A stretch of DNA of 64,000 nucleotides from Escherichia phage EcSzw_1. Positions within the stretch are counted from its first letter, which is position 1. The number at the start of each line of letters is the position of its first letter. The DNA lies in sequence record MH791413.1. One strand, written 5' to 3'. This document shows positions 1 through 64,000 of this stretch, piece after piece. Under the pieces are notes generated by a model, which worked only from the letters and a program-made list of their open reading frames with translations, was not told the origin of the DNA and ran no database searches. The translations under genes were made by a program, and so were the position numbers.

Positions 1-931
1 TATCTTCATCAGCCATATCTGAACCAAGTAAACCAAATGTTAGAGTTGTGAATGCAAAGTCACCACGGCTGCAAGGTACAGTATTCAGCTTCATCTCCAG
101 TGACTGAAAACCTTGAGTTAGTTCAATCTGTAGCTGTTCCATTACATAATTGTAGTAATGTTCTTTTGGAATCCCATAAGAAGTTGCTTTCTCAGCATGG
201 TAGCGTAAAGACTTCTTAGCATACGGTACGAGAACCTTATCAATCTCTGGGATTGTGAAGCCACCAAATTGCTGTGCAGTTGCTGATAACACAACATCAC
301 CAATAACCTGTAAAGCTGACAGAACAGACTTAGGTTCACAGTATTCAATACCGGACATTTCAAAGCCACCTTTCAGGACTTTACCAATGTCAAATAGGCA
401 ACAGTTAATACCACCAAATACCAAATCTCTCAGGTCGTGAATGTAGATGAAACCTGCTTCAATAGCTTCAAGTTCTTCTGGTGTCAAGTGATACTGCTTA
501 AAGATTTCTTTAGTCAGGTATCCACGAATGATAGAACCTTTTGTAGAGATTAAGCTACTGTCAAAGTTAGCATTCTCACGGTCACCTAAGAAGAGGGTAT
601 CTTTGGTCTTCTGATAGAGTTCATCCCAATTCTGTGCAACCTCTTTACGATAGTTACGATAGGTTGAATAAGATTCATAAATCTCGTGATTAACTTCTGC
701 TAAAGCCCCTTCAACAATGCTGTGAATGTCATCTACAGAAATCAGCAAAGCATTCTGGTTAGAAGCCTTTACAAGAATCCGCATAAAAGCTGACTCAAGA
801 GCATGAACAACTTCTAATGGGAGTTCTTTATAGCCAACTCGGTTAGCTGACTTTGTAACTGCTGCTAGGACTTTCTTAATATCTGGTTCTTCAAGTGAGC
901 CATTCTTTTTAATAATTTGTACTTTGACCAT
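1..931 (-). CDS. nrdD: Anaerobic ribonucleoside-triphosphate reductase NrdD, N-terminal part (continues beyond window start)
   Basis: Not in ORF track (runs off edge). Hand translation from ATG 931..929 with AAGGAG SD gives MVKVQIIKKNGSLEEPDIKK...; motifs GINCCLFDIGKVLKGGF and QFGGFTIPEIDKVLVPYAKK resemble T4 NrdD. Confidence 0.75.
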   Translation of the reverse strand, partial: MVKVQIIKKNGSLEEPDIKKVLAAVTKSANRVGYKELPLEVVHALESAFMRILVKASNQNALLISVDDIHSIVEGALAEVNHEIYESYSTYRNYRKEVAQNWDELYQKTKDTLFLGDRENANFDSSLISTKGSIIRGYLTKEIFKQYHLTPEELEAIEAGFIYIHDLRDLVFGGINCCLFDIGKVLKGGFEMSGIEYCEPKSVLSALQVIGDVVLSATAQQFGGFTIPEIDKVLVPYAKKSLRYHAEKATSYGIPKEHYYNYVMEQLQIELTQGFQSLEMKLNTVPCSRGDFAFTTLTFGLLGSDMADED

Positions 932-2764: not shown

Positions 2765-2772
2765 GGTTTCTC

Positions 2773-2793
2773 CAAAAGGGGCTTTGCAGCCCC
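2773..2793 (-). terminator. Rho-independent terminator after nrdA
   Basis: Minus strand GGGGCT-GCAA-AGCCCC followed by TTTT. Confidence 0.7.
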
Positions 2794-2801
2794 CTGTTTA
2801 G

Positions 2802-5036
2802 TTAAACTCCACAACCTTCACAGTAAGCATCTTGAAGTGCTGACTTACCAACACCAATACGACTGTTAAGGTAGTACATAGTTTTCATACCAACTGAGTT
2901 AGCATAAATCATGTACTTCAAAGCTTGCTCTAATGATACCTTTTTCGATTTTGAATAGTCAACATAGAAATCTGAAGAGATAGCTTGACCAGTGAATTTT
3001 TGAACAATTGCATAGCAATCAATCATGTCAAAGGTGTCAATATCCCAAGCAATTTCATAGACATACTTCAATTCTTCGTAATCTGGAACGATGAACAGGA
3101 CGTTACCAGTAGCTGACTTCTTGGTTAAGATGAAGTCACGAATTGGGTACAATCCGTTTGTCGTATTAGTTGCCAGTGAAGAACTCTCGTTAGGCATGTA
3201 AGCCTCAAGTACAGAGTTTCTAATACCACTGTTTGCTTTAATACGGTCTGCTAAGTCATCCCAATCATAACGAAGTTTTGCATCGTGTTTTGTATCAATC
3301 TTCCTGTTAGCTGTCTTCGGAGGAACCCAACCTTCAGGATACTTGGTGAACTTCATATATTCAGGTACACCACGTTCTTTTGCAAGTCTTAATGAAGCCT
3401 CATGCAGATAGTAAGAGTGCATCTCTGCGAGTTCATGTAGCTTCGTTTTACCTGCTCTTGAAGAGTAGTTCACGTAGTTCTTCGCAAGGTAATGAGCCAC
3501 ATTCGTAAGACCAATCCCAACAGAACGACGTTTCTGAACGTGGTTACGCATTGACGGATACGGATAGTCCATAAGGTCAATAACGGAGTCAACCATTGCA
3601 AGAGCATAATAAGCAACGTCAGCGTATTCATCTTCTGTGATTCTCCCTGCTACCAGACTAGCCAAGAAGCAAAGAGCAACTTCACCATCTTCTTTAGGTG
3701 CTGTGTAACTGTAAAGGTCACGTTCATCTTCGAATCCGTGAACTGGCAATACAATTTCCATACACAAGTTAGACATTTTCAAAGGTTCTTTAAACGGCGT
3801 GTGAGTGTTAGCATTGTTCGTAAAGAACGGGTACACACGGCCTGTAGCATAACGTTGCTGGATGAACAGCTTGGCAACTTCACGAGCCTTAACACGTTTA
3901 TGCTTAACACCTGAATGAACTGCGTGACCAACTGCCATAGCAAACTCATCAGCAGATGCTGTGTAGAACATGTCATAAAGTTTTGGAGCGTCCTTGTAAG
4001 AGAACAGCAACCAATCTGTATCGTACTGCACACACTGCCAGAAATAGTCATTTGCACCAAATGAATAATCCATCTCATTAATACGCTTAGAAGGAACCGT
4101 TGTAGGGTGCTTCAAACGCAGTAAATCTTCAATCTGCGGGTCTATGGCAGTGTAGAAGTTGTTAGCTGAACCACCACGACTCTTCTGCTTATTGGCCTCT
4201 ACAGCAGCACGTACAAGCTTGTAATAAGGTAGTTTACCCATGTGTTCAATGGTGTTTTGACGAATACCATCACCAATTGTACGGGTCTCCATCAGCATAC
4301 CAATGCCAGCTTGCTTCGTGGTCATATCATAAGCTACCTTAGTAGCAATGCCAAGAGACTCAGCAGTATCATTAGCTTTGATTAAGCAGCATGACGCATA
4401 ACCTGACTTAGTAGCACGTAAACCATTCAGATAAGGCGTAGGAGCGTTAATCTTCAGGTCAGACAGGTAAGTGTACAGTTTGATAACATCTTCCAGTCTA
4501 CGGTGCTTAGGTTGTCTCTCAAAGGCTTTCATAGCCATACCCATAAACATAAATTGTGGAGACTCAAACAGACGACCTGACTTGATATCTCGGATACCGT
4601 ATTTGTCACGGAACTGTTTCAGTACTGCATAACCGTAAGAGATATCTTTTGAGTGAACAATGTGACCTTGTAAATAGTCAATCTCTTGTTCAGTGTAATC
4701 CATGTGTTCCCACAAACCCATCTGCTCCATTTTCATAACGAAGTTAAACAGTTGAGGAACTTTTGTGAAACCACCAAAGGCTTCTTTGTAGATGATGCCA
4801 AGAAGTAATCGACCAGCCATATCAGAGTATTCTTGAGTCTGCTTATCAATACAAACGTCAATCATAGCTTGGTGCATCTCTTTGGTAGAGCAACCTTCAT
4901 AGACACGCTTCATAGCTTCCATAGTTACTTCTGACCAAATGATTCCTCGTTTGTCAGCCCATGAAGCCCATTTGTTTAAACGTTCTGGTTCGAATGGTAC
5001 GATTGTACCGTCAGATTTGCGAATGGTCTTAATCAT
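2802..5036 (-). CDS. nrdA: Ribonucleotide reductase class Ia large subunit
   Basis: 744 aa; N-terminal ATP-cone (IRKSDGTIVPFEPERL), size and C-terminal Cys pair typical of NrdA. Confidence 0.85.
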   Translation of the reverse strand: MIKTIRKSDGTIVPFEPERLNKWASWADKRGIIWSEVTMEAMKRVYEGCSTKEMHQAMIDVCIDKQTQEYSDMAGRLLLGIIYKEAFGGFTKVPQLFNFVMKMEQMGLWEHMDYTEQEIDYLQGHIVHSKDISYGYAVLKQFRDKYGIRDIKSGRLFESPQFMFMGMAMKAFERQPKHRRLEDVIKLYTYLSDLKINAPTPYLNGLRATKSGYASCCLIKANDTAESLGIATKVAYDMTTKQAGIGMLMETRTIGDGIRQNTIEHMGKLPYYKLVRAAVEANKQKSRGGSANNFYTAIDPQIEDLLRLKHPTTVPSKRINEMDYSFGANDYFWQCVQYDTDWLLFSYKDAPKLYDMFYTASADEFAMAVGHAVHSGVKHKRVKAREVAKLFIQQRYATGRVYPFFTNNANTHTPFKEPLKMSNLCMEIVLPVHGFEDERDLYSYTAPKEDGEVALCFLASLVAGRITEDEYADVAYYALAMVDSVIDLMDYPYPSMRNHVQKRRSVGIGLTNVAHYLAKNYVNYSSRAGKTKLHELAEMHSYYLHEASLRLAKERGVPEYMKFTKYPEGWVPPKTANRKIDTKHDAKLRYDWDDLADRIKANSGIRNSVLEAYMPNESSSLATNTTNGLYPIRDFILTKKSATGNVLFIVPDYEELKYVYEIAWDIDTFDMIDCYAIVQKFTGQAISSDFYVDYSKSKKVSLEQALKYMIYANSVGMKTMYYLNSRIGVGKSALQDAYCEGCGV

Positions 5037-45279: not shown

Positions 45280-46881
45280 TTAACGTCTAAGCCCCTCATA
45301 AGGATTGCTTCTCACTAAATCAGTGTGAGTACCCATAGAAGGTGGCTTGAATAGTTTTACTTCGTTGAGACTGTTGAAAGCATCGCTTGTGGCATCCACT
45401 TGGTCATCCTTGGTTTTCCCATCTCCACAAAAACCTTCCAGTTCTTGGAAATAGGCTTCGTTCCAGCTACCTCTAACGATTTTTACCAATCCTGCTTCTG
45501 AAGCAGCAGAGAAACCCGCAAAACGGGTAACTTTATCTTTATTGGTTGGTTTGGCTCTTGCACGATAACCTTTCTCGGCAAGTTTTCTGATAAGAGATGT
45601 TGCGTAGGATTTACCAGCAGCGCCTGGGTCTTGAGGAATAAAGATACCAGTACGTTTGCCGTCGCTTTCAGCAGTCAAGTTAATTTGTGTCTCGACTCCA
45701 GAAGGTCTATCTCTAAATCTTACTACGTTCATGACATAATAGCAACCATCTTTTTTAGATTTAGCCATTCTAACACCCGCTGTCCAGTCAGGGTTAGGGT
45801 TAACTTCAGAAGGTAAAGTAGCTGCTAAGTCCCATGCTCTAACGTCAAATACGTCAGGTGGAACTGAGTCAACAATCTCACACCATTGCCTTTGCCAATA
45901 GTTAGAACCTTCTGCACGAGCTTTCCAGTTACCAAATCTCAAACGTGCAACGTTTACTGGAGTGTTGTTTTCCAGCTTACCACGATACTTCGGTTCCAAG
46001 AAGTCAAGAATTGGGTTATCATCAATCGTACCAGAGATAAAGGTATACGTCTGAGGAATCTCCAGAGGGAACATTTCAAGAATCTTATCTCTATCCCAAT
46101 CAGATACCATCACACCATCATTCATCACATACCAACGAATACGACCACATTTCTCAGGGTCTGGGTAACCCTCTTCGTCTAAGAACGGTTCTACCCAATC
46201 ATAAATGAAGTGGTCTCTGTCTGGGTTCATGGAAATCTTCATGTAAGAGTCACCTTCAGCACCAGAACGTAAACGAGTTTGCAGGTATGAAATCTGTGAC
46301 GCAGAGAAGTGTGTACCTTCGTCAAAGTAAATTGCTGAGTATTCAATACCCTGATGACCTTCAGCGTGTTTTTCAAGTTCTAAGTAGGTAAACTTGATAG
46401 TAGCCCCAGAAGGGAATACAATAGTCATCTTTTGTTCATGTGGAACACCACCGAACTTACCAAAAAGCTTCTTCGCAGCAGGCCATAAACCACCTTGTAA
46501 CTGTGTCGTGTTTCGACGGAAGTATACAGCGTTGTAGTTAGGGTCTTCGATAAATCTGAGTGAATCCATCAGCAAAGCAGCAGTCTTACCAGCACCAGCC
46601 GCACCACCATATAGAACTAAGTCAGCATTTGTGTTAAGAAATACTTCCTGAGAGCCGGGTTGTGGAGCTACATAGTTCTTATCAGTCATAAGTTTGAAGA
46701 TAAGTCTTACTTGGTCTGGAGTGTATCTTAATAAAGTCAGAATCTGAGTAGGAAGGAATTTAGAGGGGTCTTTACCAAATGATTTGATAATATCTTTAAC
46801 TTCATCAGAAAGCCCCAACTCTCCAGCTAGGACTTTCCTTACATCTTCCACTCGCTTCTGCTTAACAGCATTCAAATCCAT
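45280..46881 (-). CDS. Terminase large subunit
   Basis: Walker A LYGGAAGAGKTAAL; about 533 aa; ATG 46881 with GGAGG SD (ORF-track TTG 46896). Confidence 0.8.
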   Translation of the reverse strand: MDLNAVKQKRVEDVRKVLAGELGLSDEVKDIIKSFGKDPSKFLPTQILTLLRYTPDQVRLIFKLMTDKNYVAPQPGSQEVFLNTNADLVLYGGAAGAGKTAALLMDSLRFIEDPNYNAVYFRRNTTQLQGGLWPAAKKLFGKFGGVPHEQKMTIVFPSGATIKFTYLELEKHAEGHQGIEYSAIYFDEGTHFSASQISYLQTRLRSGAEGDSYMKISMNPDRDHFIYDWVEPFLDEEGYPDPEKCGRIRWYVMNDGVMVSDWDRDKILEMFPLEIPQTYTFISGTIDDNPILDFLEPKYRGKLENNTPVNVARLRFGNWKARAEGSNYWQRQWCEIVDSVPPDVFDVRAWDLAATLPSEVNPNPDWTAGVRMAKSKKDGCYYVMNVVRFRDRPSGVETQINLTAESDGKRTGIFIPQDPGAAGKSYATSLIRKLAEKGYRARAKPTNKDKVTRFAGFSAASEAGLVKIVRGSWNEAYFQELEGFCGDGKTKDDQVDATSDAFNSLNEVKLFKPPSMGTHTDLVRSNPYEGLRR

Positions 46882-46902
46882 TAAGCGCCTCCGCAAATAG
46901 AA

Positions 46903-47322: not shown

Positions 47323-47398
47323 TGGAGCGTCGAAAGGGAGTCGAACCCTCATAATCCTGTTTTGCAGACAGGTACATAGCCATTTCTGTCATCGACGC
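47323..47398 (-). tRNA. tRNA-Cys (GCA)
   Basis: Hand-folded cloverleaf: acceptor GCGTCGA/TCGACGC, anticodon loop CTGCAAA, T-loop TTCGACT, CCA encoded. Confidence 0.75.
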
Positions 47399-47405
47399 AT
47401 TAAAT

Positions 47406-47498
47406 TGGAGGAAGATACCAGACTTGAACTGGTACGCCGATTTCTCGGTTACTGACAGTTTAGCAAACTGTTCCCTTACCTTTTAGGGTTAATCTTCC
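47406..47498 (-). tRNA. tRNA-Ser (GCT), class II
   Basis: 93 nt; acceptor GGAAGAT/ATCTTCC; anticodon loop TTGCTAA; long variable arm. Confidence 0.75.
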
Positions 47499-47500
47499 AA

Positions 47501-48235
47501 TTATTTGTTCAAGGCATCCTTCATTTCTGGAGTTGCAATTGAATCAATCACGCCAGTTTTACAAGCATCATCAAACCAGTCTGGTAAGACACCTGCAAGG
47601 AAACCATTAATATTCGTTTTCAAGTAATCAGCAATTAACGCTGCTTCATCTGCAATCATCTGAGTGACCTCATTAGTGTATGCAGTAATCTTAGCAATGC
47701 CCTGATTAATCGCTGTAACGGCTTGTGAGGCTAAGGAAGAGATAGTGTCTAGTCCTTTGTCGATTGCGTCTTTTAAGTCGCTTAGAATGCCATTCACAGT
47801 GTCTATGGAGGTGTTAATCAAATCCATAGCTTGTTGACCGTACTCTGTAGCTACTCCCATGATTCCACTAAACGGTGTACAACCAACTTGTTCTCCTGCT
47901 GCACCCATAACGTTAGAGTAACCTTTAGCTACCTGCATACGTGATGAGAACTCATCTACAGAAGTCTGACCGTATTGAGTCAGTGTGTTAGTTGTCGTTG
48001 TAGTGCTTCCAAGGCTCGTTGAGAAGCTACTTAACAAGGCTGTAGTCAAACCAGCAGCAATAAGTTTATCTTTTACTGTAGGGTCTGATACCGAGCTAAT
48101 AGAGCTTACTAATGAAGTAGAAGCGGCAATTGTGCCACCAAGGATTGCTGCACCAGTAATAAGGGGGTTGGAAAACCCGTTACCGGATTTCAGGAGATTA
48201 AAAATCTCTTTACCTTGTTCTGTCATCTCTTTCAT
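47501..48235 (-). CDS. Hypothetical Ser/Thr/Ala-rich protein inside tRNA array
   Basis: 244-aa ORF. Confidence 0.5.
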   Translation of the reverse strand: MKEMTEQGKEIFNLLKSGNGFSNPLITGAAILGGTIAASTSLVSSISSVSDPTVKDKLIAAGLTTALLSSFSTSLGSTTTTTNTLTQYGQTSVDEFSSRMQVAKGYSNVMGAAGEQVGCTPFSGIMGVATEYGQQAMDLINTSIDTVNGILSDLKDAIDKGLDTISSLASQAVTAINQGIAKITAYTNEVTQMIADEAALIADYLKTNINGFLAGVLPDWFDDACKTGVIDSIATPEMKDALNK

Positions 48236-48252
48236 TAAGCACCTTTTGAAAT

Positions 48253-48329
48253 TGGCGGGTTAGTGGGATTTGAACCCTCTTCTCATGTTTTTCAGACACG
48301 CGCTTTAACCATATAAGCTACTTAACCCA
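48253..48329 (-). tRNA. tRNA-Phe (GAA)
   Basis: Anticodon loop CTGAAAA; T-loop TTCAAAT; 3' register uncertain by 1 nt. Confidence 0.65.
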
Positions 48330-48336
48330 TTAAATT

Positions 48337-48413
48337 TGGGGTGACCTACGGGAATCGAACCCGTATAGACCATGTTCACAGCATGGGTCATTATCCATTT
48401 ATGATAAGGCCAC
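48337..48413 (-). tRNA. tRNA-His (GTG)
   Basis: Anticodon stem-loop CCATG-CTGTGAA-CATGG; T-loop TTCGATT. Confidence 0.7.
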
Positions 48414-48444
48414 ATGTAAGGACTCTCGTAAGAACCCTTAGAAG

Positions 48445-48520
48445 TGGCAGCAGCGTAAGGATTTGAACCTTAATCTTTCAGCTTCAGAGGCTGGAGCATT
48501 GCCAGTTATGCTACACTGCT
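48445..48520 (-). tRNA. tRNA-Gln (CTG)
   Basis: D stem GCAT/ATGC; anticodon loop CTCTGAA; T arm TAAGG-TTCAAAT-CCTTA. Confidence 0.65.
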
Positions 48521-48527
48521 ATTAATT

Positions 48528-48606
48528 TGGTACTCCATATCGGATTCGAACCGATACATAACACAGATTTTAAGTCTGGCCTCTCTGCCAATTGGAGTAA
48601 TGGAGC
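48528..48606 (-). tRNA. tRNA with Leu anticodon TAA but short (7-nt) variable region
   Basis: 79 nt; anticodon CAGA-CTTAAAA-TCTG; D loop AATTGGCAGAG; A73; no long variable arm. Confidence 0.55.
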
Positions 48607-48608
48607 AT

Positions 48609-48685
48609 TGGCGGGGGATGTTGGAATTGAACCAACTTCTTCGATTTCAAAGACCGAGGTTTTAACCTTGTAAACTAATCCCCTT
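48609..48685 (-). tRNA. tRNA-Gln (TTG)
   Basis: Anticodon stem-loop TCGGT-CTTTGAA-ATCGA; T arm GTTGG-TTCAATT-CCAAC. Confidence 0.65.
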
Positions 48686-48692
48686 TAAATCT

Positions 48693-49250
48693 TTACTTTC
48701 TTAGTGGATGAATAAAGAATGCCAACATAATTCTTTCCCTTGAGAATGCTCTTTCTTCTGGGACAACACTTTTAAGTTTCCATCCAACATAAATTCTCCA
48801 GTAAAACTGTTTACCAAAGACTTTAATTGATGGGATAAAAGCGAATAATCCCCAAGCATTACTATTCCACATTAGGAGATAACCTGTCTGATTATCTTCA
48901 GGGTTAGAACTTACGTTGATATTACCTTTCCACTTAGTAACATCTTTTACATCTCTTCCCAATACATGGTAAGAGAAGTTATAAGCTTTGTTTCTCCAGA
49001 GCCATCCAACTCTCTGCATATAAACACCGAGCTTGCCAATCTTTCGAATCTTAGCCCACCGTTCAACGTGACCTTTGTCACCGTCAATCGGGTTGTCATA
49101 AGTCTCCATCCATCTGAATCCAAAAGGCAAGTGACCTTTCTTCTCACTGTAGAATGGAACTACAAAGGGTGCTAAGATTACTGCTAAGATTGCTGCAAAT
49201 GGCTCTAGCAAAGCTAGGAAAATCCATGAAGCATACTTCAAATATCTCAT
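48693..49250 (-). CDS. Membrane protein, hypothetical, inside tRNA array
   Basis: 185 aa with N-terminal hydrophobic helices. Confidence 0.5.
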   Translation of the reverse strand: MRYLKYASWIFLALLEPFAAILAVILAPFVVPFYSEKKGHLPFGFRWMETYDNPIDGDKGHVERWAKIRKIGKLGVYMQRVGWLWRNKAYNFSYHVLGRDVKDVTKWKGNINVSSNPEDNQTGYLLMWNSNAWGLFAFIPSIKVFGKQFYWRIYVGWKLKSVVPEERAFSRERIMLAFFIHPLRK

Positions 49251-49269
49251 TTAAATAGCCTCTTTAAAT

Positions 49270-49346
49270 TGGTGCAGAATAAGGGATTCGAACCCCTAAC
49301 AAACAACTTCGTAGGTTGCTGCTCTATCCATTTGAACTAATTCTGC
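49270..49346 (-). tRNA. tRNA-Arg (ACG)
   Basis: Acceptor GCAGAAT/ATTCTGC; anticodon loop CTACGAA; T-loop TTCGAAT. Confidence 0.7.
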
Positions 49347-49508
49347 AATGTTCTTTTGAGATTCCTGTCTAGCTCTCTTCTTATCTCTTCTGAGAAAGCG
49401 TCTACGATGGTCTGTACGCCACTTGTAGTAATCTTCTTCACCATCGTGAGAAGCACAGCAACCACAACTTGCAATTTCAACTTTACCGTGTCTACCATAA
49501 GGCTTCAT
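49296..49508 (-). CDS. Small Cys-rich basic protein, questionable (3' end overlaps tRNA-Arg)
   Basis: 70 aa with AGGAGA SD before ATG 49508, but last 50 nt overlap tRNA 49270..49346. Confidence 0.3.
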   Translation of the reverse strand: MKPYGRHGKVEIASCGCCASHDGEEDYYKWRTDHRRRFLRRDKKRARQESQKNIAELVQMDRAATYEVVC

Positions 49509-49524
49509 AGGAATCTCCTAAAAT

Positions 49525-49602
49525 TGGTGTTCCAAGACGGATTCGAACCGTCACTAATACAAGGTTTGAGCTTGCATCCTCTGCCAATTGGGATACTGGA
49601 AC
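49525..49602 (-). tRNA. tRNA with Leu anticodon CAA but short variable region
   Basis: 78 nt; anticodon GCAAG-CTCAAAC-CTTGT; D loop AATTGGCAGAGG; A73. Confidence 0.55.
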
Positions 49603-49604
49603 AT

Positions 49605-49679
49605 TGGTACTCGCTGAAGGACTTGAACCTTCTTCACCAACTTGTAAGGATGGGGCTTTACCGTATAAACTAAGCGAGT
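49605..49679 (-). tRNA. tRNA-Val (TAC)
   Basis: Acceptor ACTCGCT/AGCGAGT; anticodon loop CTTACAA; T arm GAAGG-TTCAAGT-CCTTC. Confidence 0.65.
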
Positions 49680-49775
49680 ATGAAAAGAGGTCTGAAGTTG
49701 TGCCGCTAACTCAACTCCGTGGAATTTGTTACGGTCTTCAGTTGACTCAAGCGGTCTTTCACTCGACCTCTGAAT
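49680..49775 (-). ncRNA. Structured non-tRNA spacer element (candidate small stable RNA)
   Basis: 96-nt gap between two tRNAs; nested inverted repeats GAGGTC/GACCTC, TGAAG/CTTCA, CCGT/ACGG; no T-loop. Confidence 0.3.
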
Positions 49776-49852
49776 TGGTGCTGCTCACAGGAGTTGAACC
49801 TGCATCTCCATCCTTACAAGGGATGTGTAATAGCCAATTATACGAAAGCAGC
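49776..49852 (-). tRNA. tRNA-Thr (TGT)
   Basis: Anticodon stem-loop CATCC-CTTGTAA-GGATG; T-loop TTCAACT. Confidence 0.7.
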
Positions 49853-49858
49853 ATTATT

Positions 49859-49933
49859 TGGAGCATCCAGAGGGAATCGAACCCTCAACCTCAGTTTGGA
49901 AGACTGTAATTTTCCCGTTTAAACTATGGATGC
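49859..49933 (-). tRNA. tRNA-Gly (TCC)
   Basis: Acceptor GCATCCA/TGGATGC; anticodon loop CTTCCAA; T arm GAGGG-TTCGATT-CCCTC. Confidence 0.7.
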
Positions 49934-49939
49934 ACTAAT

Positions 49940-50015
49940 TGGTGGAGAAGCAGGGAATTGAACCCTGTACTTAAGTTTGCAAAACTTATGTTTTAACCAT
50001 GTAAACTACATCCCC
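49940..50015 (-). tRNA. tRNA-Ala (TGC)
   Basis: Anticodon stem-loop TAAGT-TTTGCAA-ACTTA; T arm CAGGG-TTCAATT-CCCTG. Confidence 0.7.
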
Positions 50016-50021
50016 GATATT

Positions 50022-50097
50022 TGGTACAGGTGGAGGGAATTGAACCCATCGTCTTACTGATTAAGAGTCAGCCGCATAACCATTTTGCTACACCTGC
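50022..50097 (-). tRNA. tRNA-Lys (CTT)
   Basis: Anticodon GCTGA-CTCTTAA-TCAGT; T stem weak (GGG/CCC plus two mismatches). Confidence 0.55.
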
Positions 50098-50104
50098 ATT
50101 AATT

Positions 50105-50181
50105 TGGTACACCTAGAGAGAGTCGAACTCACACTGAACAGATTCTAAGTCTGCTGCCTCTTCCAATTGGGCTATAGGTGC
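50105..50181 (-). tRNA. tRNA with Leu anticodon TAG but short variable region
   Basis: 77 nt; anticodon GCAGA-CTTAGAA-TCTGT; D loop AATTGGAAGAGG; A73. Confidence 0.55.
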
Positions 50182-50182
50182 A

Positions 50183-50635
50183 TTAAATCAAATGTCTTGA
50201 GAATTGACTATGACAATTTGGACACAAGAATCTTAAGTTTTCTTTTCTATCGTCTAACCAGTTTTCGTTGATATGGTCAACATCAAGTGTTAGTGGTTTA
50301 CCTAACCATTCTGGTTGCTGTCCACACTTAGAGCATTTGTATTCAACACCAGAAGCTATTAAAGCCCTTCTAAGTTGTGTTGACCTTGCTCTTTCACCTG
50401 ATTCACGAAGAATCAAGATTTCTTCAGGCTTTCTTTTTGGTAAAGTTTTAACCTTACCTGCCTTTTGTCCAAGGAAATGAGAAGTATCTAACTCAAACTT
50501 CTCTATAACACGTTTCAAGTGTGACTGAGAACCACCTGCTGGTTTTCTTCCAAGCTTGATAAGTACTTCTCTAAATGATACTGATTCTTTCACTAAAGGT
50601 TCAAGAACCTCTTTAGTCAAACTTCTACGTGTCAT
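50183..50635 (-). CDS. HNH homing-type endonuclease
   Basis: C-terminal LDVDHINENWLDDRKENLRFLCPNCH; inside tRNA array. Confidence 0.7.
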   Translation of the reverse strand: MTRRSLTKEVLEPLVKESVSFREVLIKLGRKPAGGSQSHLKRVIEKFELDTSHFLGQKAGKVKTLPKRKPEEILILRESGERARSTQLRRALIASGVEYKCSKCGQQPEWLGKPLTLDVDHINENWLDDRKENLRFLCPNCHSQFSRHLI

Positions 50636-50893
50636 GTGTCAATCTCCCATTAAATCTTTGTAGAGAACTGCTAAGACGCCAAAGCAACAATGGTATCAAA
50701 TGCCTTAACAATTCTCTAAAAAGACCTAACTGGTCTTTGCATAGTCTTGTTTAATCCGGTGACTAGAACCTTTGGAGAGCTTGATATTATCTCTTCTCCG
50801 TGACACCTACTAGGTGCTTTACTGTGCGTGTACGACAATACACGAGGGAAACCGAACGCAACGACGAAGTAGCGCAGGTCTTAAATCTCATTA

Positions 50894-50983
50894 GGCGGTA
50901 GATAAAGGAGTCGAACCCTCACCGTATCACTACAATGGCAACAGTTTTCAAGACTGTTTGGCTTCCATTAGCCGCTATCTACC
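50894..50983 (-). tRNA. tRNA-Ser (TGA), class II
   Basis: Acceptor GGTAGAT/ATCTACC; anticodon ACAGT-CTTGAAA-ACTGT; long variable arm; 3' CCA not encoded. Confidence 0.65.
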
Positions 50984-50996
50984 CCTAATAAGACTT

Positions 50997-51079
50997 TGGC
51001 ATGGGACGGAGGATTCGAACCCCTTTGAGTAAGTTTTGGAGGCTTACGCTCATGCCTTAGAGTCTTAACATCGTCCCAT
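50997..51079 (-). tRNA. tRNA-Trp (CCA), atypical extended D region
   Basis: Acceptor ATGGGAC/GTCCCAT; anticodon loop CTCCAAA as in E. coli tRNA-Trp; T-loop TTCGAAT; D region about 7 nt longer than canonical. Confidence 0.5.
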
Positions 51080-51221
51080 ACTACAATTCGAAGCTTACCG
51101 TATTATCACAACACTGTAAAGCCCCTTCTCAGATTTTTTACATGTTCTGGAAAACATGAGATACAGACCACCTCCATACAGGAAGACCCGCTAAGGTCGT
51201 CTAAGTAATCTGCTAACTATT

Positions 51222-51289
51222 TGGCAGTCAAGGTAGGAGTCGAACCTACTTACTATCGAAGGTAGCTAACCTTCAGTAACTTTCCGACT
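51222..51289 (-). ncRNA. Degenerate tRNA-like element lacking a D arm
   Basis: 68 nt; canonical T arm GTAGG-TTCGACT-CCTAC and CCA; hairpin GAAGG-TTAGCTA-CCTTC; no D arm. Confidence 0.35.
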
Positions 51290-51348
51290 TTCGTACACCT
51301 GCTAACATGTATTCAGATGGCTTACTAGTGTTGTCTTGACCATTAAAC

Positions 51349-51425
51349 TGGCACACCCTACAGGACTCGAACCTGTAACTCAGTGCTTAGAAGGCACTTG
51401 CTCTATCCAATTGAACTAAGGGTGC
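51349..51425 (-). tRNA. tRNA-Arg (TCT)
   Basis: D arm GTTC-AATTGGATA-GAGC; anticodon AGTGC-CTTCTAA-GCACT; T arm ACAGG-TTCGAGT-CCTGT. Confidence 0.75.
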
Positions 51426-51675
51426 ATTCTTATCTTTAAAGGCTCTCTTAGAAAACCCTTAAAGATGCCCACATTATTAATCATACCGTGGGCGAGTACG
51501 CCAAATTCTTTGATGAGGGGTTGGAAGACCTCACTGGTGTTTAGCCTATTAAGCTACTGCCAGAAAAACATTATCGTTTGCATTTATTTTAGTTTGCAAA
51601 AATAGACGCTACGCTAACGAAAACTAAGGTTACTATAAAGTGGTCACATCTGAATGTCAACAACTTTATCAAATT

Positions 51676-51750
51676 TGGTAGTGGTAGCAGGAATCGAACC
51701 TGCGATGTTCGGTTATCAGCCGAGTGTTATGACCGTCTTAACTATACCAC
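51676..51750 (-). tRNA. tRNA-Ile (GAT)
   Basis: Anticodon loop CTGATAA; T arm GCAGG-TTCGATT-CCTGC. Confidence 0.7.
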
Positions 51751-51753
51751 CAT

Positions 51754-51830
51754 TGGAGGTTCAGATGGGATTCGAACCCACATTCATAGGGCTTATGAAA
51801 CCCTTGCATTACCTTATCTGCGACTGAACC
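51754..51830 (-). tRNA. tRNA-Met (CAT); could be initiator, elongator or Ile2
   Basis: Acceptor GGTTCAG/CTGAACC; anticodon AGGGT-TTCATAA-GCCCT with three G:C pairs; T-loop TTCGAAT. Confidence 0.65.
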
Positions 51831-51909
51831 ATAATAAGTTGCCCTTTGGAGAAGAGCTATTGAGTGGGTGTTTCCAGCCGCGCAGGTGTTCTTCAGTTAA
51901 GGGCGAATT

Positions 51910-59935: not shown

Positions 59936-59967
59936 GCTTGACAGCAGTATACATGTTTTTATATGAT

Positions 59968-59995
59968 GGGGCTACTTAATGGTAGTCCCTTTTTC
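59968..59995 (+). terminator. Hairpin plus T-tract between genes, with promoter-like hexamers upstream
   Basis: GGGGCTAC-ttaatg-GTAGTCCC then TTTTT; preceded by TTGACA (59938) N18 TATGAT (59962). Confidence 0.45.
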
Positions 59996-60013
59996 ATATG
60001 CGAGGAAAGTAAA

Positions 60014-60706
60014 ATGAAAGTACAAAAAGGTGATGTAATAGCTATTCGCGTCCTTCATGGTCTAGCAACAAAACATGACACAGTTTATGCTGACGTAACA
60101 TTTGTATCAGGTAATGGAAGAGTATACTTCAAACCAAGAGCTAATATGCGTTTTCTTGTTGACCGTCGCGGAAAGGTTGAGAATGGAATCTACGCTGGTC
60201 AAGTGTACTCAACCGATGAGTTTGGCAAAGGCATATTCACAGGTGCTTGGCGAGGTATTTTAACACTTGGGCTATGTACAAGTATGAAATCTGAAGAAGC
60301 TGAAGAAGTATGTGAAGAAACCTTTGAAGCACCTGTCATTAATGCTGAAGACCTCCCTAAACATGACTATGGTGCAGCACGTTTCACAACTAAGGCAGAT
60401 GCTAATGGGGCAGCTTCAGTAGTTGTCGACAAAGCCCAAGACTTCTTCAAAGCTTTCTCTTCAAGTAACCAACATCATCACCACTTCAATCCTCAAACAA
60501 AACTTGATTCAGTGTTGACTAGTAAATGTGAAGATGCTAAGAAGTTGGCTAAAGAGGTTTATGAAGCTTCTTTTACAGCAAGTGAAGTGATTGAAGAGAA
60601 TCAGTTTGAAAAGGTCATTCGTACAATGATGAAAGCTGGTTTAACACCTCATCAGATTGCTGAAGAGATTCAACGTCAGTTCTACAACGCTATGGTGAAC
60701 GAATGA
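60014..60706 (+). CDS. Hypothetical protein
   Basis: ATG 60014 with GAGGAAAG SD (MKVQKGD...). Confidence 0.5.
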   Translation: MKVQKGDVIAIRVLHGLATKHDTVYADVTFVSGNGRVYFKPRANMRFLVDRRGKVENGIYAGQVYSTDEFGKGIFTGAWRGILTLGLCTSMKSEEAEEVCEETFEAPVINAEDLPKHDYGAARFTTKADANGAASVVVDKAQDFFKAFSSSNQHHHHFNPQTKLDSVLTSKCEDAKKLAKEVYEASFTASEVIEENQFEKVIRTMMKAGLTPHQIAEEIQRQFYNAMVNE

Positions 60707-60924
60707 AAAAATTTACAACACTTGGTGAGTACTGGATGCTTGCTGCTACAGAATCATACAGGAAAGCCAAAAAGACTAAACAGTGCTATGGTAAGAAAGC
60801 TGAAGGTGACATTCTGTACTGCACAGTGTATGATGGAATGCCTCATGTTACACCAAGAGGTAAAGCTTTCAAACGTCTGATGGATATTGAGTGGAATGCT
60901 CGTTTAGAGAGGGTAGCAAAATGA
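60703..60924 (+). CDS. Hypothetical small protein
   Basis: 73-aa ORF. Confidence 0.45.
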   Translation: MKKFTTLGEYWMLAATESYRKAKKTKQCYGKKAEGDILYCTVYDGMPHVTPRGKAFKRLMDIEWNARLERVAK

Positions 60925-61427
60925 TTTATGAAGATAGCCGTGATGTAATTTCTTATCAGAAATCTCAACACCATGTCTCTATCAAGATTGTCAAACCTGA
61001 TGGTGAAGAAGGTGTTATCTCTCACTTTGGAGGAGACAATTGGTTTGGCACAGGGTGCTTTGAAGGTTACAGTAAAGAATATCTGAAAGCATTCTACCGA
61101 GACTTTAGCAGTGACTACAATGAACTGATTGAAGTGAAGAATAAGTGTACAGCCAGTGAGTACAAAGTCAGGGGTTGGGCTGGAATGATTCTGATGCTTG
61201 GCATTTTCCTTCTGATGATTTGTGCAATCTCCTTCATGGGCTTCTACACCCAAGATTTAACACTGAATCAGACCGAAAAGAAAATAGGTGAAATTTGGTT
61301 CTTGTATGTCCTTCCAATTGCTGGTATGATTGCTGCCTATTGGAGAATGAAGGTTCATAAGAAACGACTTGTGGATGCTGAGAATAAATTTGAAGAGGTA
61401 AGTAAAGAATGCAACCTAAGATTTTAG
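60921..61427 (+). CDS. Membrane protein, hypothetical
   Basis: ATG 60921 with SD; hydrophobic helices (GMILMLGIFLLMICAISFMGF). Confidence 0.5.
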   Translation: MIYEDSRDVISYQKSQHHVSIKIVKPDGEEGVISHFGGDNWFGTGCFEGYSKEYLKAFYRDFSSDYNELIEVKNKCTASEYKVRGWAGMILMLGIFLLMICAISFMGFYTQDLTLNQTEKKIGEIWFLYVLPIAGMIAAYWRMKVHKKRLVDAENKFEEVSKECNLRF

Positions 61428-61501
61428 CTGTATGTATCCGCTATGCAATTGCTGATATGATTAATCAAGCAATCCTGAAAGATGCTTATAAGGAGTGATA
61501 A

Positions 61502-61729
61502 ATGATTAAGACACCTATCCAGCCATTCGGCTTTAGCTCTCTTAACGAACTGAAAGAGCACCTTGATAAGAACTACTACAACGAACAACCTGTAACGGTT
61601 CTTAAAGCTGACCTTTCAAAACTTCTGGACATGGCTATTGAAGCTACTGTAGAATCAAAACCAGAAGTTGAGAAGAAAGCTGAAAAGAAAACGAAGAAGA
61701 CTGAGAAGAAATCTGAGGATTCTGAGTAA
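61502..61729 (+). CDS. Hypothetical small protein
   Basis: 75 aa, Lys/Glu-rich C-terminus. Confidence 0.45.
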   Translation: MIKTPIQPFGFSSLNELKEHLDKNYYNEQPVTVLKADLSKLLDMAIEATVESKPEVEKKAEKKTKKTEKKSEDSE

Positions 61730-61782
61730 AATCTTGAAGGGGTTACTTGATAGCCCCTCTTAACCAAACAAGGTAGCGAAAA

Positions 61783-62196
61783 ATGAAACACATAGTTGGT
61801 AAAGTTCTGAATGTCAAACATATATTGACTGGTGAGCATATAACTTCTGTCAAAGTTCAGAAAGTAAATGATGATGCTAACTACCCAATCTACTGTACTG
61901 TCATTGAAGATTTCATGGCTGCTGGTTTCCATCATGCAGAAGGTGAGTACTTAACGTTTGATAAAGAAGGTAAGTGGCGTGGCAAAAATCATTCAGATGC
62001 AAGTGATTTTGATATGATTCTGGATATTCCGTCAGGTGATTCTAAAACTGTTGAAATCTTGATGAGTGACTATGAAGAACAAGTTATGAAGGTTGCTGTA
62101 GACGTTGATATGGCTGTTGAACTGCTTTTACCACATCTGAAATCTGGTAAACTCTCTTTAGAAACTTTTGAGAAGATTGTTAAGGGTAAACTATGA
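61783..62196 (+). CDS. Hypothetical protein
   Basis: 137-aa ORF. Confidence 0.5.
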   Translation: MKHIVGKVLNVKHILTGEHITSVKVQKVNDDANYPIYCTVIEDFMAAGFHHAEGEYLTFDKEGKWRGKNHSDASDFDMILDIPSGDSKTVEILMSDYEEQVMKVAVDVDMAVELLLPHLKSGKLSLETFEKIVKGKL

Positions 62197-62660
62197 AACT
62201 TAAAGAAATCGTTCGCAAAGCAATGCTGGACAACTCCACTAAAGATGAGATGTACAAAGAAATCTGTGATAAGTTGAACTGTTCAAGACATGCTGCCAAG
62301 GTTCTTGTCGCAAGTTTTATCTGGGAGTGTTCAGAGGCTTATATGAACTATACAGCTTTTGAGAGTTCTCACTTGATAGGCGACATAAAGGTTGGTACAG
62401 AGTTCAAAGAGCCTGAAATGAAACCTTCAGTGAAAGTAGGTAACCTTTATCAGATTAAAGATTTCCAGACTGCACAGATTGTTGCAAAAGGTGAAGTAGA
62501 AGCTGTGTACAATGATGGTACATACCTCATTAAAATCTTTGAGTATGCTAAGTCATATGCTCACCTTTGTGGAATAAGATTTCTTGTGACGAAAGAAGAT
62601 TTAGTTATGTCATCTGGTGATAAAGCTTATGCTGTACCACATTATGAAATTGTACGATGA
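62193..62660 (+). CDS. Hypothetical protein
   Basis: 155-aa ORF. Confidence 0.5.
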   Translation: MKLKEIVRKAMLDNSTKDEMYKEICDKLNCSRHAAKVLVASFIWECSEAYMNYTAFESSHLIGDIKVGTEFKEPEMKPSVKVGNLYQIKDFQTAQIVAKGEVEAVYNDGTYLIKIFEYAKSYAHLCGIRFLVTKEDLVMSSGDKAYAVPHYEIVR

Positions 62661-63340
62661 AGAGTCTTATGGGACACCTTCGCAGGATGAATTGGACGAA
62701 CTTGAAAGATACGGTTCTCCTTCGGAAGAAGAAAAAGATTCAATCTGATGAATGGTCAAAACTTACTAAGAAGTGTTTTCAGGATTTGATAGATATGGAA
62801 AAACAATTTGAGTTAGAGAGAAAGTACTTGGTACTGAGTTTGGAAGATATTGATAACTATCTTTCACCAGAATGCAGAGACCAGCTTCAACAAATTGTAA
62901 TGTCACTGAGGCATTCAAGAGAACTTGTAGATGGTAAAGAGCCACTTGAAGGTATCTTTGTTAAGAACTCTTATCCGTTCTATAAAGATACTTTGCAGAA
63001 ACTTGAAATGTACGTTAAACAGCAGAATCGTAAAGAGTTCACTATGGTTTCTCTTGGTGGACAACAAATGCTTGTTATGGAGGATATCAATCCTAAACGA
63101 GTTAACAGAGGTGTTTGTATCAAGGTCACAGGTAAAGAAGAATTTGTTGATTATGACATACTCAGACATATTATAGATGGTTTGGGTGCTGTACTGAACA
63201 TGAATGAATACCATATTAGTTCACACCCAATTAAGGGTGACCAGATAATGATTCAGGTAAGAGAACGTCATAATGGGTTCACACACTTCTTCCAGACTTC
63301 TAAAACTTCATTGCAAGCTATGCTTAGTGAAGTGATGTAA
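62657..63340 (+). CDS. Hypothetical protein
   Basis: 227-aa ORF, last gene of rightward block. Confidence 0.5.
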   Translation: MKSLMGHLRRMNWTNLKDTVLLRKKKKIQSDEWSKLTKKCFQDLIDMEKQFELERKYLVLSLEDIDNYLSPECRDQLQQIVMSLRHSRELVDGKEPLEGIFVKNSYPFYKDTLQKLEMYVKQQNRKEFTMVSLGGQQMLVMEDINPKRVNRGVCIKVTGKEEFVDYDILRHIIDGLGAVLNMNEYHISSHPIKGDQIMIQVRERHNGFTHFFQTSKTSLQAMLSEVM

Positions 63341-63349
63341 AACTCTACA

Positions 63350-63396
63350 GCCCCTTAAAATGGATTCGATAGAATCTATCTCATAGGGGCTTTTTA
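63350..63396 (+). terminator. Rho-independent terminator with nested hairpin
   Basis: GCCCCT...AGGGGC stem enclosing GATTC/GAATC hairpin, then TTTTT. Confidence 0.6.
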
Positions 63397-63420
63397 TTGA
63401 GTAAAATAATTTTTATAAAA

Positions 63421-64000
63421 TTTGGATTCACTCCGTTCATCTTGGGTCACCATATCATGTGATAAAATATCTACCCTTCTTAACAGCCTACTTAATCTTA
63501 CTCTCTATATATATATAGTTATATAGTACTATATAGTATCTTAGTCCCTTAACAGTGAGTCTCTATAGCCCTCTGTATAACCCTTCTATAAAGCCCTATA
63601 AGCATCCCTCTTCCAAACCTATACAATCACCTTAACCATCTCTTCATAGCCCCTTAGAAGCCCCTATACCCATCTTAATCTCTATGTCAGAGATAGTACC
63701 CTCTATAGGGTGTTCACTAGGTTCTACTAATCCTCTATATAGACTGTTTTAGATAACTAAACAGGTATCACCTTCTAGTTGATTCGGTTGTTCTTAAGAA
63801 TCAACCTCTTAGGCTTATCCTACAAGGTCTAACACGTTATTAACAAGGTATCTTATAAGCCTGTATTTACCTGTTTTATACAGAATACTATATAGATATT
63901 TATGCAATTCTTAAAATTTTTATAAAATAGAACTGTCAAGTCATTTTTTAGGGTCTTGAGAGCAACTCAAAAATATCTGTTTAGGATGTATATCTGCTTG
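63421..64000. repeat. Non-coding region rich in short CTATA/TATAG-containing repeats and inverted repeats
   Basis: No ORF; about 10 degenerate (A)GCCC(C)TATA-like units at 63500-63740; IRs TTGATTC/GAATCAA, GGCTTAT/ATAAGCC; flanking AATTTTTATAAAAT direct repeat. Confidence 0.5.

Follow-up and report, generated by a model that had tools for sequence, protein, structure and literature searches.

How exact direct terminal repeats (DTRs) arise during packaging is, according to a 2026 review, not understood as well as cos and headful packaging are, and nearly all existing data on DTRs come from T3 and T7. The Felix O1-like phages are widely isolated, are in diagnostic and biocontrol use against Salmonella and E. 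coli and are described as being without an RNA polymerase of their own, and in several of them the genome ends have been mapped as DTRs. This text discusses the flank of such a repeat in Escherichia phage EcSzw_1 (sequence record MH791413.1), of which a stretch of 64,000 nucleotides, hereafter the window, was analysed on one strand, 5' to 3'. The region in question, 63396-64000, closes the window, and it is read here, with a probability of roughly 0.6, as the cis-acting flank of the DTR that would serve end maturation and packaging in a Felix O1-like phage. The observations that carry this reading are its position relative to the mapped ends of the relatives, its conservation, its repeat anatomy and its lack of coding content. 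The location is known biology because the end positions of the relatives are already published; the internal grammar and the function of the flank are not described in the literature found.

Citrobacter phage HP1 has an exact 570-bp DTR (1..570) at both ends of its record, and its paper describes direct repeats at both termini. In Pr103Blw a "short direct terminal repeat" is annotated at 1..581 with the same boundary as in HP1, PhageTerm having given two 581-bp repeats in the paper on this phage, and D4, the genome of which was likewise ordered by PhageTerm, has the same start base, the same boundary and a 581-bp DTR. In UAB_Phi87, two restriction fragments were degraded by Bal31, run-off sequencing gave a 608-bp DTR and heating of the digests revealed no cohesive ends; the sequence of this repeat was taken from the supplement of the paper, since the GenBank version is not ordered by its ends. 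The inner boundary in HP1, Pr103Blw and D4, ...GTTAAGGGCTACC/AAGCAGATATAC, is the reverse complement of the window end (the last bases of the window read CAAGCAGATATAC in reverse complement), and the window end aligns within 0-3 nt to the inner DTR boundary of HP1, Pr103Blw, D4 and UAB_Phi87. The DTR end of UAB_Phi87, ...GTTAAGGGCTACCAA-3', also matches the window end, with the run-off boundary at ...GGGCTACCAA-3'. The DTR starts at 64000 by the read-based boundary and at 63998 by the run-off boundary, and the window therefore ends 1 base or 3 bases, respectively, inside the DTR.

The junction TGTATATCTGCTTG-GTAGCCCTTAACA is invariant in 15 of 15 aligned genomes (the window and 14 relatives from three genera), and in the relatives the DTR continues GTAGCCCTTAACA.... 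These alignments identify the region as unique non-coding DNA that flanks the DTR and lies between an operon terminator (63349-63396) and the DTR cut site at 63998-64000. No homologue of the DTR occurs elsewhere in the 64-kb window, and a fixed-size window that stops exactly at the boundary suggests that the source record was ordered by its ends. The idea that the flank is a degenerate tandem copy of the DTR was rejected, self-comparison of six relatives having given only short and weak matches between flank and DTR. A separate observation concerns a "circular" Suspvirus record, PC79-13 (OR687644.2), in which an annotated "repeat_region" (1..127) falls inside the DTR homologue; because its length equals a common assembler k-mer, this annotation probably reflects overlap in the assembly and no terminal repeat of biological origin.

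In an earlier note on this DNA, the organisation of the region was called typical of replication origins or packaging (pac/cos) regions. The packaging or termini half of this proposal is supported by the mapped ends of relatives, a comparison that had itself been named as a check, the last bases of the window aligning to the inner DTR boundary in the four relatives with determined ends, and by the strong conservation of the region in 15 genomes; the strict cos or pac form and the origin half have gained no positive support. A cos site is contradicted by UAB_Phi87, a relative, which has no cohesive ends and the exact 608-bp repeats of which were sequenced. A headful pac site is contradicted, indirectly for EcSzw_1, by the exact repeats of the relatives, which start and end identically in independent isolates.

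Matches to the region come from 254 phage records. With one exception their names refer to enterobacterial hosts (Escherichia, Salmonella, Shigella, Citrobacter), and all the matching records that were inspected are classified in the Ounavirinae, the Felix O1-like myoviruses. The best matches are Suspvirus EP1, mistaenkt, SUSP2 and EcSzw-2, in addition to P219, which is filed under Felixounavirus, and by these matches the window phage is a Felix O1-like member of the Ounavirinae, in Suspvirus. An odd match is GU169904.1, "Staphylococcus phage SA1", a 147-kb record with 76.5% identity to the terminal region at 136463-137053, which suggests a chimeric or contaminated, mislabelled entry. The Erwinia phage Fifi106 (Kolesnikvirus), a circular older record that is not terminus-ordered, gave no nucleotide similarity and is uninformative.

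Between genera, the identity of the region is 77-83% (gaps excluded) versus 55-65% in the adjoining upstream 1400 nt of coding DNA. In the 15-genome alignment, 60% of the columns in 63396-64000 are near-invariant, that is, invariant or deviating in one genome only. The invariant blocks are TTTTATAAAATTT (63411-63423), TGGGTCACCAT (63443) and ATAAAATATCT (63462), then CTTAGAAGC, TCTTAATCTCTA, TCACTAGGT and CCTCTATATAGACTGTT in 63653-63748, ACAAGGTCTAACACG and TAACAAGGTATCTTATAAGCCTGT in 63822-63864, AAAATTTTTATAAAATAG (63913), AAAAATATCT (63969) and the junction (63987-64000). This alignment indicates that the region is under strong selection as DNA.

The last gene of the rightward (+) operon stops at 63340 in the list of open reading frames (ORFs) of the window, and an ORF scan of 63396-64000 found no ORF of at least 60 aa. 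Only two ORFs with TTG starts are present, one of 34 aa at 63422-63526 (+) and one of 30 aa at 63815-63907 (-), and both are disrupted in the relatives by indels of 1, 2 and 4 nt; small proteins were consequently rejected, and the absence of any credible ORF from these ~600 bp, as described earlier, holds good. A coding role, either of these small proteins or of a structured small RNA, is thus extremely improbable, even though short hypothetical proteins are annotated here in some records and an extended -10-like sequence, TGATAAAAT, is found at 63460-63468, for promoter-like sites number 3 versus 6.1 in shuffles and the spacing of the extended -10 is broken by a 1-nt insertion in Felixounavirus. 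A structured RNA or known RNA family was also rejected, with no Rfam match at E<=1 and folding z-scores of -0.9 and -0.8. As an observation in its own right, TGATAAAAT (+) fits the extended -10 promoter TGnTAAAAT and faces the C-rich array described below and the DTR; it is kept in Suspvirus and Mooglevirus, with the TG shifted by the said insertion in Felixounavirus, and a candidate promoter beside the DTR would recall T7 phiOR.

The features of the region and of the terminator before it are as follows, with "no strand" where none is assigned.

63349..63396, + strand: intrinsic terminator of the rightward operon, stem AGCCCCT (63349-63355) / AGGGGCT (63385-63391), then a T-run
63408..63423, no strand: box A1, AATTTTTATAAAATTT, first copy of the flanking direct repeat, including the 10-bp palindrome TTTTATAAAA
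63443..63472, + strand: conserved block TGGGTCACCAT..ATGTGATAAAATATCT, near-invariant at 63443-63453 and 63462-63472
63447-63462, within the block 63443..63472: imperfect palindrome TCACCATATCATGTGA
63460-63468, + strand, within the same block: extended -10-like TGATAAAAT
63464-63472: box B1, AAAATATCT, recurring at 63970
63505..63540, no strand: (TA)5, then three phased TATATAGTA units at 9-10 bp spacing
63560..63675, + strand: C-rich, G-poor array of about ten degenerate units, consensus about TCTNTATARCCC, with a 12-nt period (11-13 nt)
63653..63750, no strand: run of boxes near-invariant in the 15-genome alignment, CTTAGAAGC, TCTTAATCTCTA, TCACTAGGT and CCTCTATATAGACTGTT
63698-63711, within the run 63653..63750: imperfect palindrome ACCCTCTATAGGGT
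63778..63810, no strand: lineage-specific 33-bp insertion GTTGATTCGGTTGTTCTTAAGAATCAACCTCTT, a hairpin with an 8-bp stem, missing from 14 of 14 relatives
63811..63864, no strand: nearly invariant block, with 63822-63836 and 63841-63864 near-invariant
63859..63899, no strand: two CCTGT boxes 10 nt apart, then ATACTATATAGATAT with the third CTATATAG palindrome
63913-63930: box A2, AAAATTTTTATAAAATAG, in the second copy of the bipartite module (63913..63978), invariant in 15 genomes
63969-63978: box B2, AAAAATATCT, in the second copy of the bipartite module, invariant in 15 genomes
63987..64000, no strand: DTR junction TGTATATCTGC/TTG, invariant in 15 genomes

The density of TATAG/CTATA is 29.3 per kb in the region versus 0.9 per kb in the other 63 kb of the window. 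Direct repeats of 8-mers number 28 versus 9.6 +/- 4.9 (0/300 resamplings), and inverted repeats of 7-mers within 120 nt number 21 versus 8.1 +/- 4.0 (2/300 resamplings), each of the 6-8 nt inverted-repeat arms alone being within chance. Out of the copies in the whole 64-kb window, the region holds 3/3 of CTATATAG, 5/6 of TATATAG and 2/2 of ATTTTTATAAAAT; because CTATATAG and ATTTTTATAAAAT are absent elsewhere, they are not general promoters, and a genome-wide promoter motif was rejected on this confinement and on sigma-70-like sites below chance expectation.

All the features listed in the earlier note were found within a few bases of the positions given there. The direct repeat which it had placed at the two edges, AATTTTTATAAAAT, is present at 63408 and 63915 as the only two copies in 64 kb, both invariant in 15 genomes; the exact 13-mer of box A likewise occurs at 63409 and 63916 only. 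Box A is separated from box B by 54 nt in both A1/B1 and A2/B2, the members of each box pair being ~506 bp apart, and the alignment score of the A/B module is 11.5 versus 3.5 +/- 1.7 (0/500 resamplings), a score owed to the boxes and not to the spacer. The same boxes at the same spacing at both ends mean, therefore, that the same box pair marks both edges of the region, with the qualification that the likeness of the edges consists of three short boxes and does not extend to the spacers.

The (TATAG)n-like tract is confirmed by Tandem Repeats Finder (TRF), which gives 63506-63539 with a period of 8-9 and 3.9 copies, and by its conservation: each TATATAGTA unit contains or resembles the palindrome CTATATAG, the three units are kept in 15 of 15 aligned genomes, with invariant blocks at 63519-63536, and phiSUSP1 has four. 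The inverted repeats which had been pointed out, TTGATTC (63779)/GAATCAA (63798), AGGCTTAT/ATAAGCCT and CTGTAT (63861)/ATACAG (63878), are all present and belong to an enriched class. The first of them, however, stands outside the conserved element, because it lies inside the insertion unique to the EcSzw_1 genome, and the third is not kept as an inverted repeat in other genera. The second, AGGCTTAT (63811) and ATAAGCCT (63855), brackets two ACAAGGT boxes ~20 nt apart, and its left arm has decayed in Felixounavirus with no change to compensate for it; what is conserved is therefore the sequence and not the hairpin. Since many of the invariant boxes are palindromic, no Rfam match and no folding excess were found and this arm is lost uncompensated, the constraint is taken to act at the level of DNA and not of RNA.

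The (A)GCCC(C)TATA units, of which some ten had been claimed, form a genuine array at 63560-63675, with an autocorrelation at lag 12 of 0.403 versus 0.273 +/- 0.033 in shuffles (0/500 reach 0.403); TRF also gives a period of 12, and the CC(C)T junctions lie at 63571, 63583, 63596, 63608, 63619, 63631, 63653 and 63664. By sequence the array is the least conserved sub-region, with 34% of its columns near-invariant. Its composition and 12-nt phasing are kept: over homologous lengths of 119/120, 131, 142/143 and 154/155 nt, which are 12-nt steps, C is 32-37% and G 5-8% in 15 of 15 genomes, with a GC skew of -0.6 to -0.79.

Rho-dependent terminators are said, after work attributed to Alifano et al. 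in 1991, to have C residues at regular intervals of about 12 nt in regions where C exceeds G. The C-rich tract downstream of the terminator may be a Rho-loading (rut) site and the region a transcription insulator, the mirrored tract on the far flank of the DTR serving the converging operon and read-through being stopped before the DTR and the packaging site. Such an insulator is possible, yet unlikely as the explanation of the region. It would agree with the predicted RNA of the array, which is mostly unpaired, and with the far flank, which is G-rich on the + strand and accordingly rich in C when read in the direction of the converging minus-strand genes, so that both C-rich tracts are situated just downstream of the terminators of convergent operons, the 12-nt phasing being in the near array only. 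However, a rut site leaves many invariant palindromic boxes outside the array unexplained, the negative skew runs well into the DTR, and T7 has arrays of the same design in a genome transcribed by a Rho-insensitive polymerase; transcript data for the Felix O1-like group were not found in the literature. Rho loading by the array could coexist with a packaging role of the other boxes.

In the relatives, the region is part of a wider, 1.6-kb non-coding block. The DTR itself contains ~24 TAACA-type motifs (CTTAACAG, CTAACAAG) in ~580 bp versus 3 per kb genome-wide. About 20 of these motifs share one orientation and 4-5, close to the far end of the DTR, have the inverse one; the density is ~13-fold the genome average (P219 3621-4199, HP1 3638-4207). 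The DTR closes with ...TGTTAAGGGGGC, the inverted form of its opening motif GTAGCCCTTAACA, and is bounded by inverted copies of TAGCCC(CC)TTAACA. It is followed by ~420-450 bp of further non-coding DNA and then by the terminator of the converging minus-strand operon. The present flank has a GC skew of -0.6 to -0.8, the far flank one of +0.4 to +0.7. TATAGCCC-like motifs are oppositely oriented on the two sides of the DTR, and EP1, Michonne and HP1 all show inverted similarity of one flank to the other.

A replication origin, or a replication or recombination site at the genome end, would also have iteron-like arrays flanked by AT-only palindromes, with iterons binding an initiator and the palindromes being unwound, and the turn of the local GC skew from C-rich to G-rich across the block, the strong conservation and the TAACA motifs crowded in the adjoining DTR are in line with it. 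Such a site is nevertheless very unlikely here. No DnaA box better than one mismatch is present, and a search for host-factor sites (DnaA, IHF, Fis) found none conserved in the region, the sole perfect IHF consensus (match at 63799) being inside the 33-bp insertion specific to the window. The AT tracts are merely 13-18 bp, the skew switch arises from the orientation of the motifs, and the skew over the genome, which had been named as a check, follows gene orientation. Moreover, the region lies between convergent and not divergent transcription units; Whichard et al. presumed early divergent transcription between Felix O1 genes 96 and 97, a site that lies away from it.

Strong selection as DNA, palindromic and phased boxes and an end at the cut site are, taken together, why the region is read as a cis-acting flank for maturation and packaging. 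As to protein binding, cutting mechanism and packaging role, we infer the following course. In a concatemer, a single copy of the DTR would stand between successive genome units, and the terminase, with its small subunit or an accessory DNA-binding protein, would recognise the boxes of the flank, namely the AT-palindromes TTTTTATAAAAT, the AAAATATCT boxes, the TATATAGTA/CTATATAG sites in their phased arrangement and the two ACAAGGT boxes. The terminase would cut at the invariant junction TGTATATCTGC/TTGGTAGCCCTTAACA, and at the other DTR boundary it would meet the same motif inverted (TGTTAAGGGGGCTA), with mirrored motifs in its flank. From this inverted motif and the mirrored flank, two cuts on opposite strands would follow, and these are what duplication of the DTR by strand-displacement synthesis would require. 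The C-rich array with its 12-nt period would be a degenerate multi-site platform comparable to SRL/SRR of T7.

Several points weigh against this reading. The end position of EcSzw_1 rests on the mapped ends of its relatives, the DTR itself being outside the window, and the literature found on Ounavirinae ends contains end mapping only and no functional experiment on the region. The array keeps its composition and period and not its sequence, and a role that depends on composition, for instance Rho loading, would fit this no less well than would the specific binding of a protein. With a period of ~10 nt and not 12 in the far flank, the mirror is imperfect, and convergent transcription would give rise to mirror symmetry too. 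To our knowledge, the function of the SRL/SRR arrays of T7 is itself not established, and insertions in the T7 end region were mostly tolerated.

The flank, the DTR and the mirrored far flank might even constitute, over 1.6 kb, one two-fold-symmetric module for end maturation, which is quite unlikely. Each flank would then present the same ordered boxes towards the inverted boundary motif TAGCCC(CC)TTAACA. A single asymmetric terminase complex would generate the DTR by nicking opposite strands at points 570-608 bp from each other, and the C-rich arrays with their 12-nt phasing would serve in addition as Rho-loading insulators and block convergent transcription through the site. If true, such a module would mean polymerase-independent generation of DTRs, distinct from T7.

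The terminator at 63349-63396 has an extra inner hairpin of ~25 nt (GGATTCGATAGAATC...) in its loop, and because the loop is long a simple terminator scan missed it; in SUSP2, phiSUSP1, Sf13 and D4 the terminator is a plain hairpin, CAGCCCCTT.ATTGGGGCTTTTT, with the inner piece missing, and the Michonne record annotates a terminator at the homologous site. A hairpin-forming piece of ~24-33 nt is in fact found as an indel at three sites of the terminal non-coding block in different genomes, in the variants TGGATTCGATAGAATCTATCTCAT, TTGATTCGGTAGAATCTACCTCAT and GTTGATTCGGTTGTTCTTAAGAATCAACCTCTT: in the terminator loop (63360-63384; present in 8 genomes, absent in 7), at 63778-63810 in EcSzw_1 only, and beside the DTR junction (homologue of ~63984) in two genomes, Moogle and a metagenome contig. 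Its appearance is that of a very small hairpin that is mobile or prone to recombination; dispersed copies of the hairpin insert were looked for and none was found elsewhere in the 64-kb window, and neither the viral nor the metagenome collections gave an exact match to the 33-bp insertion. In addition, EcSzw-2 (MH791400, "UNVERIFIED") is 100% identical to the window from 56000 to 63372, in the middle of the terminator-loop hairpin, where that record ends, and past 63372 the window is at most ~91% identical to anything in the phage collection. At its start, the EcSzw-2 record has the terminal region twice, in diverged copies (1-995, 2770-3690), which suggests mis-assembly or a mixed culture, and the terminator-loop hairpin may be a mosaic or assembly breakpoint.

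With respect to the rest of the window, the terminase large subunit is encoded at 45280-46896 (-), as a phrog_979 match (E 4.6e-233) of the Felix O1 type; its clade among DTR terminases is taken from the literature and was not recomputed. This gene is ~17 kb from the terminus and just downstream of a cluster of 24 tRNA genes on the minus strand (47323-53128); Felix O1-like genomes likewise carry a large terminase gene and tRNA genes.

The conserved block, with its boxes parsed and its cut site mapped, may offer a second and RNA-polymerase-independent system for the cis requirements of DTR packaging. The invariant junction TGTATATCTGCTTGGTAGCCCTTAACA also allows simple orienting and opening of the ~250 Ounavirinae records, most of which have arbitrary start points.

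When the flank is compared with known systems, the closest are the other Ounavirinae (Felix O1, UAB_Phi87, Pr103Blw, HP1, Michonne, SUSP2 and mistaenkt), which have a homologous DTR flank, 73-91% identical, with the same order of boxes, the same junction with a DTR of 570-608 bp and the same place between two convergent operons; EcSzw_1 differs in its unique 33-bp hairpin insertion (63778-63810) and in having the 131-nt variant of the array. Rho rut sites resemble the EcSzw_1 tract in its length of >100 nt, its C well above G, its little predicted structure and its C clusters about every 12 nt, but the tract is set among invariant palindromic boxes and has a DNA counterpart in T7. Phage lambda cosB and SPP1 pacL-pacR have phased short repeats beside a terminase cut site, a design that the TATATAGTA triplet and the A/B boxes are here proposed to share; lambda and SPP1, however, make cohesive or headful ends, whereas in the relatives of EcSzw_1 the DTRs are exact and cohesive ends are lacking.

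The signals that T3 and T7 need in cis for cutting their concatemers reportedly lie in and beside the repeat, as work under the names of Dunn and Studier (1983), Chung and Hinkle (1990) and Fujisawa and Morita (1997) is said to describe. In the T7 sequence, arrays of CCTAAAG with a 13-nt period immediately adjoin the 160-bp terminal repeat on either side. SRL/SRR of T7 and the Ounavirinae flank have in common a short exact DTR and non-coding arrays of at least about ten degenerate units with a period of 12-13 nt and a C-rich strand, placed on both inner sides of the DTR. The units, CCTAAAG versus the CTATAGCCC type in EcSzw_1, have no sequence similarity; the T7 arrays are ~15 bp from the repeat and run in the same direction on both sides, whereas in EcSzw_1 a distance of 320-440 bp separates the array from the boundary and in the Ounavirinae the two flanks mirror each other; and T7 couples processing to an RNA polymerase of its own, whereas Felix O1-like phages have none. 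Because the unit consensus differs and the flanks of the Ounavirinae are mirrored, the relation to T7 is therefore one of analogy and not of membership.

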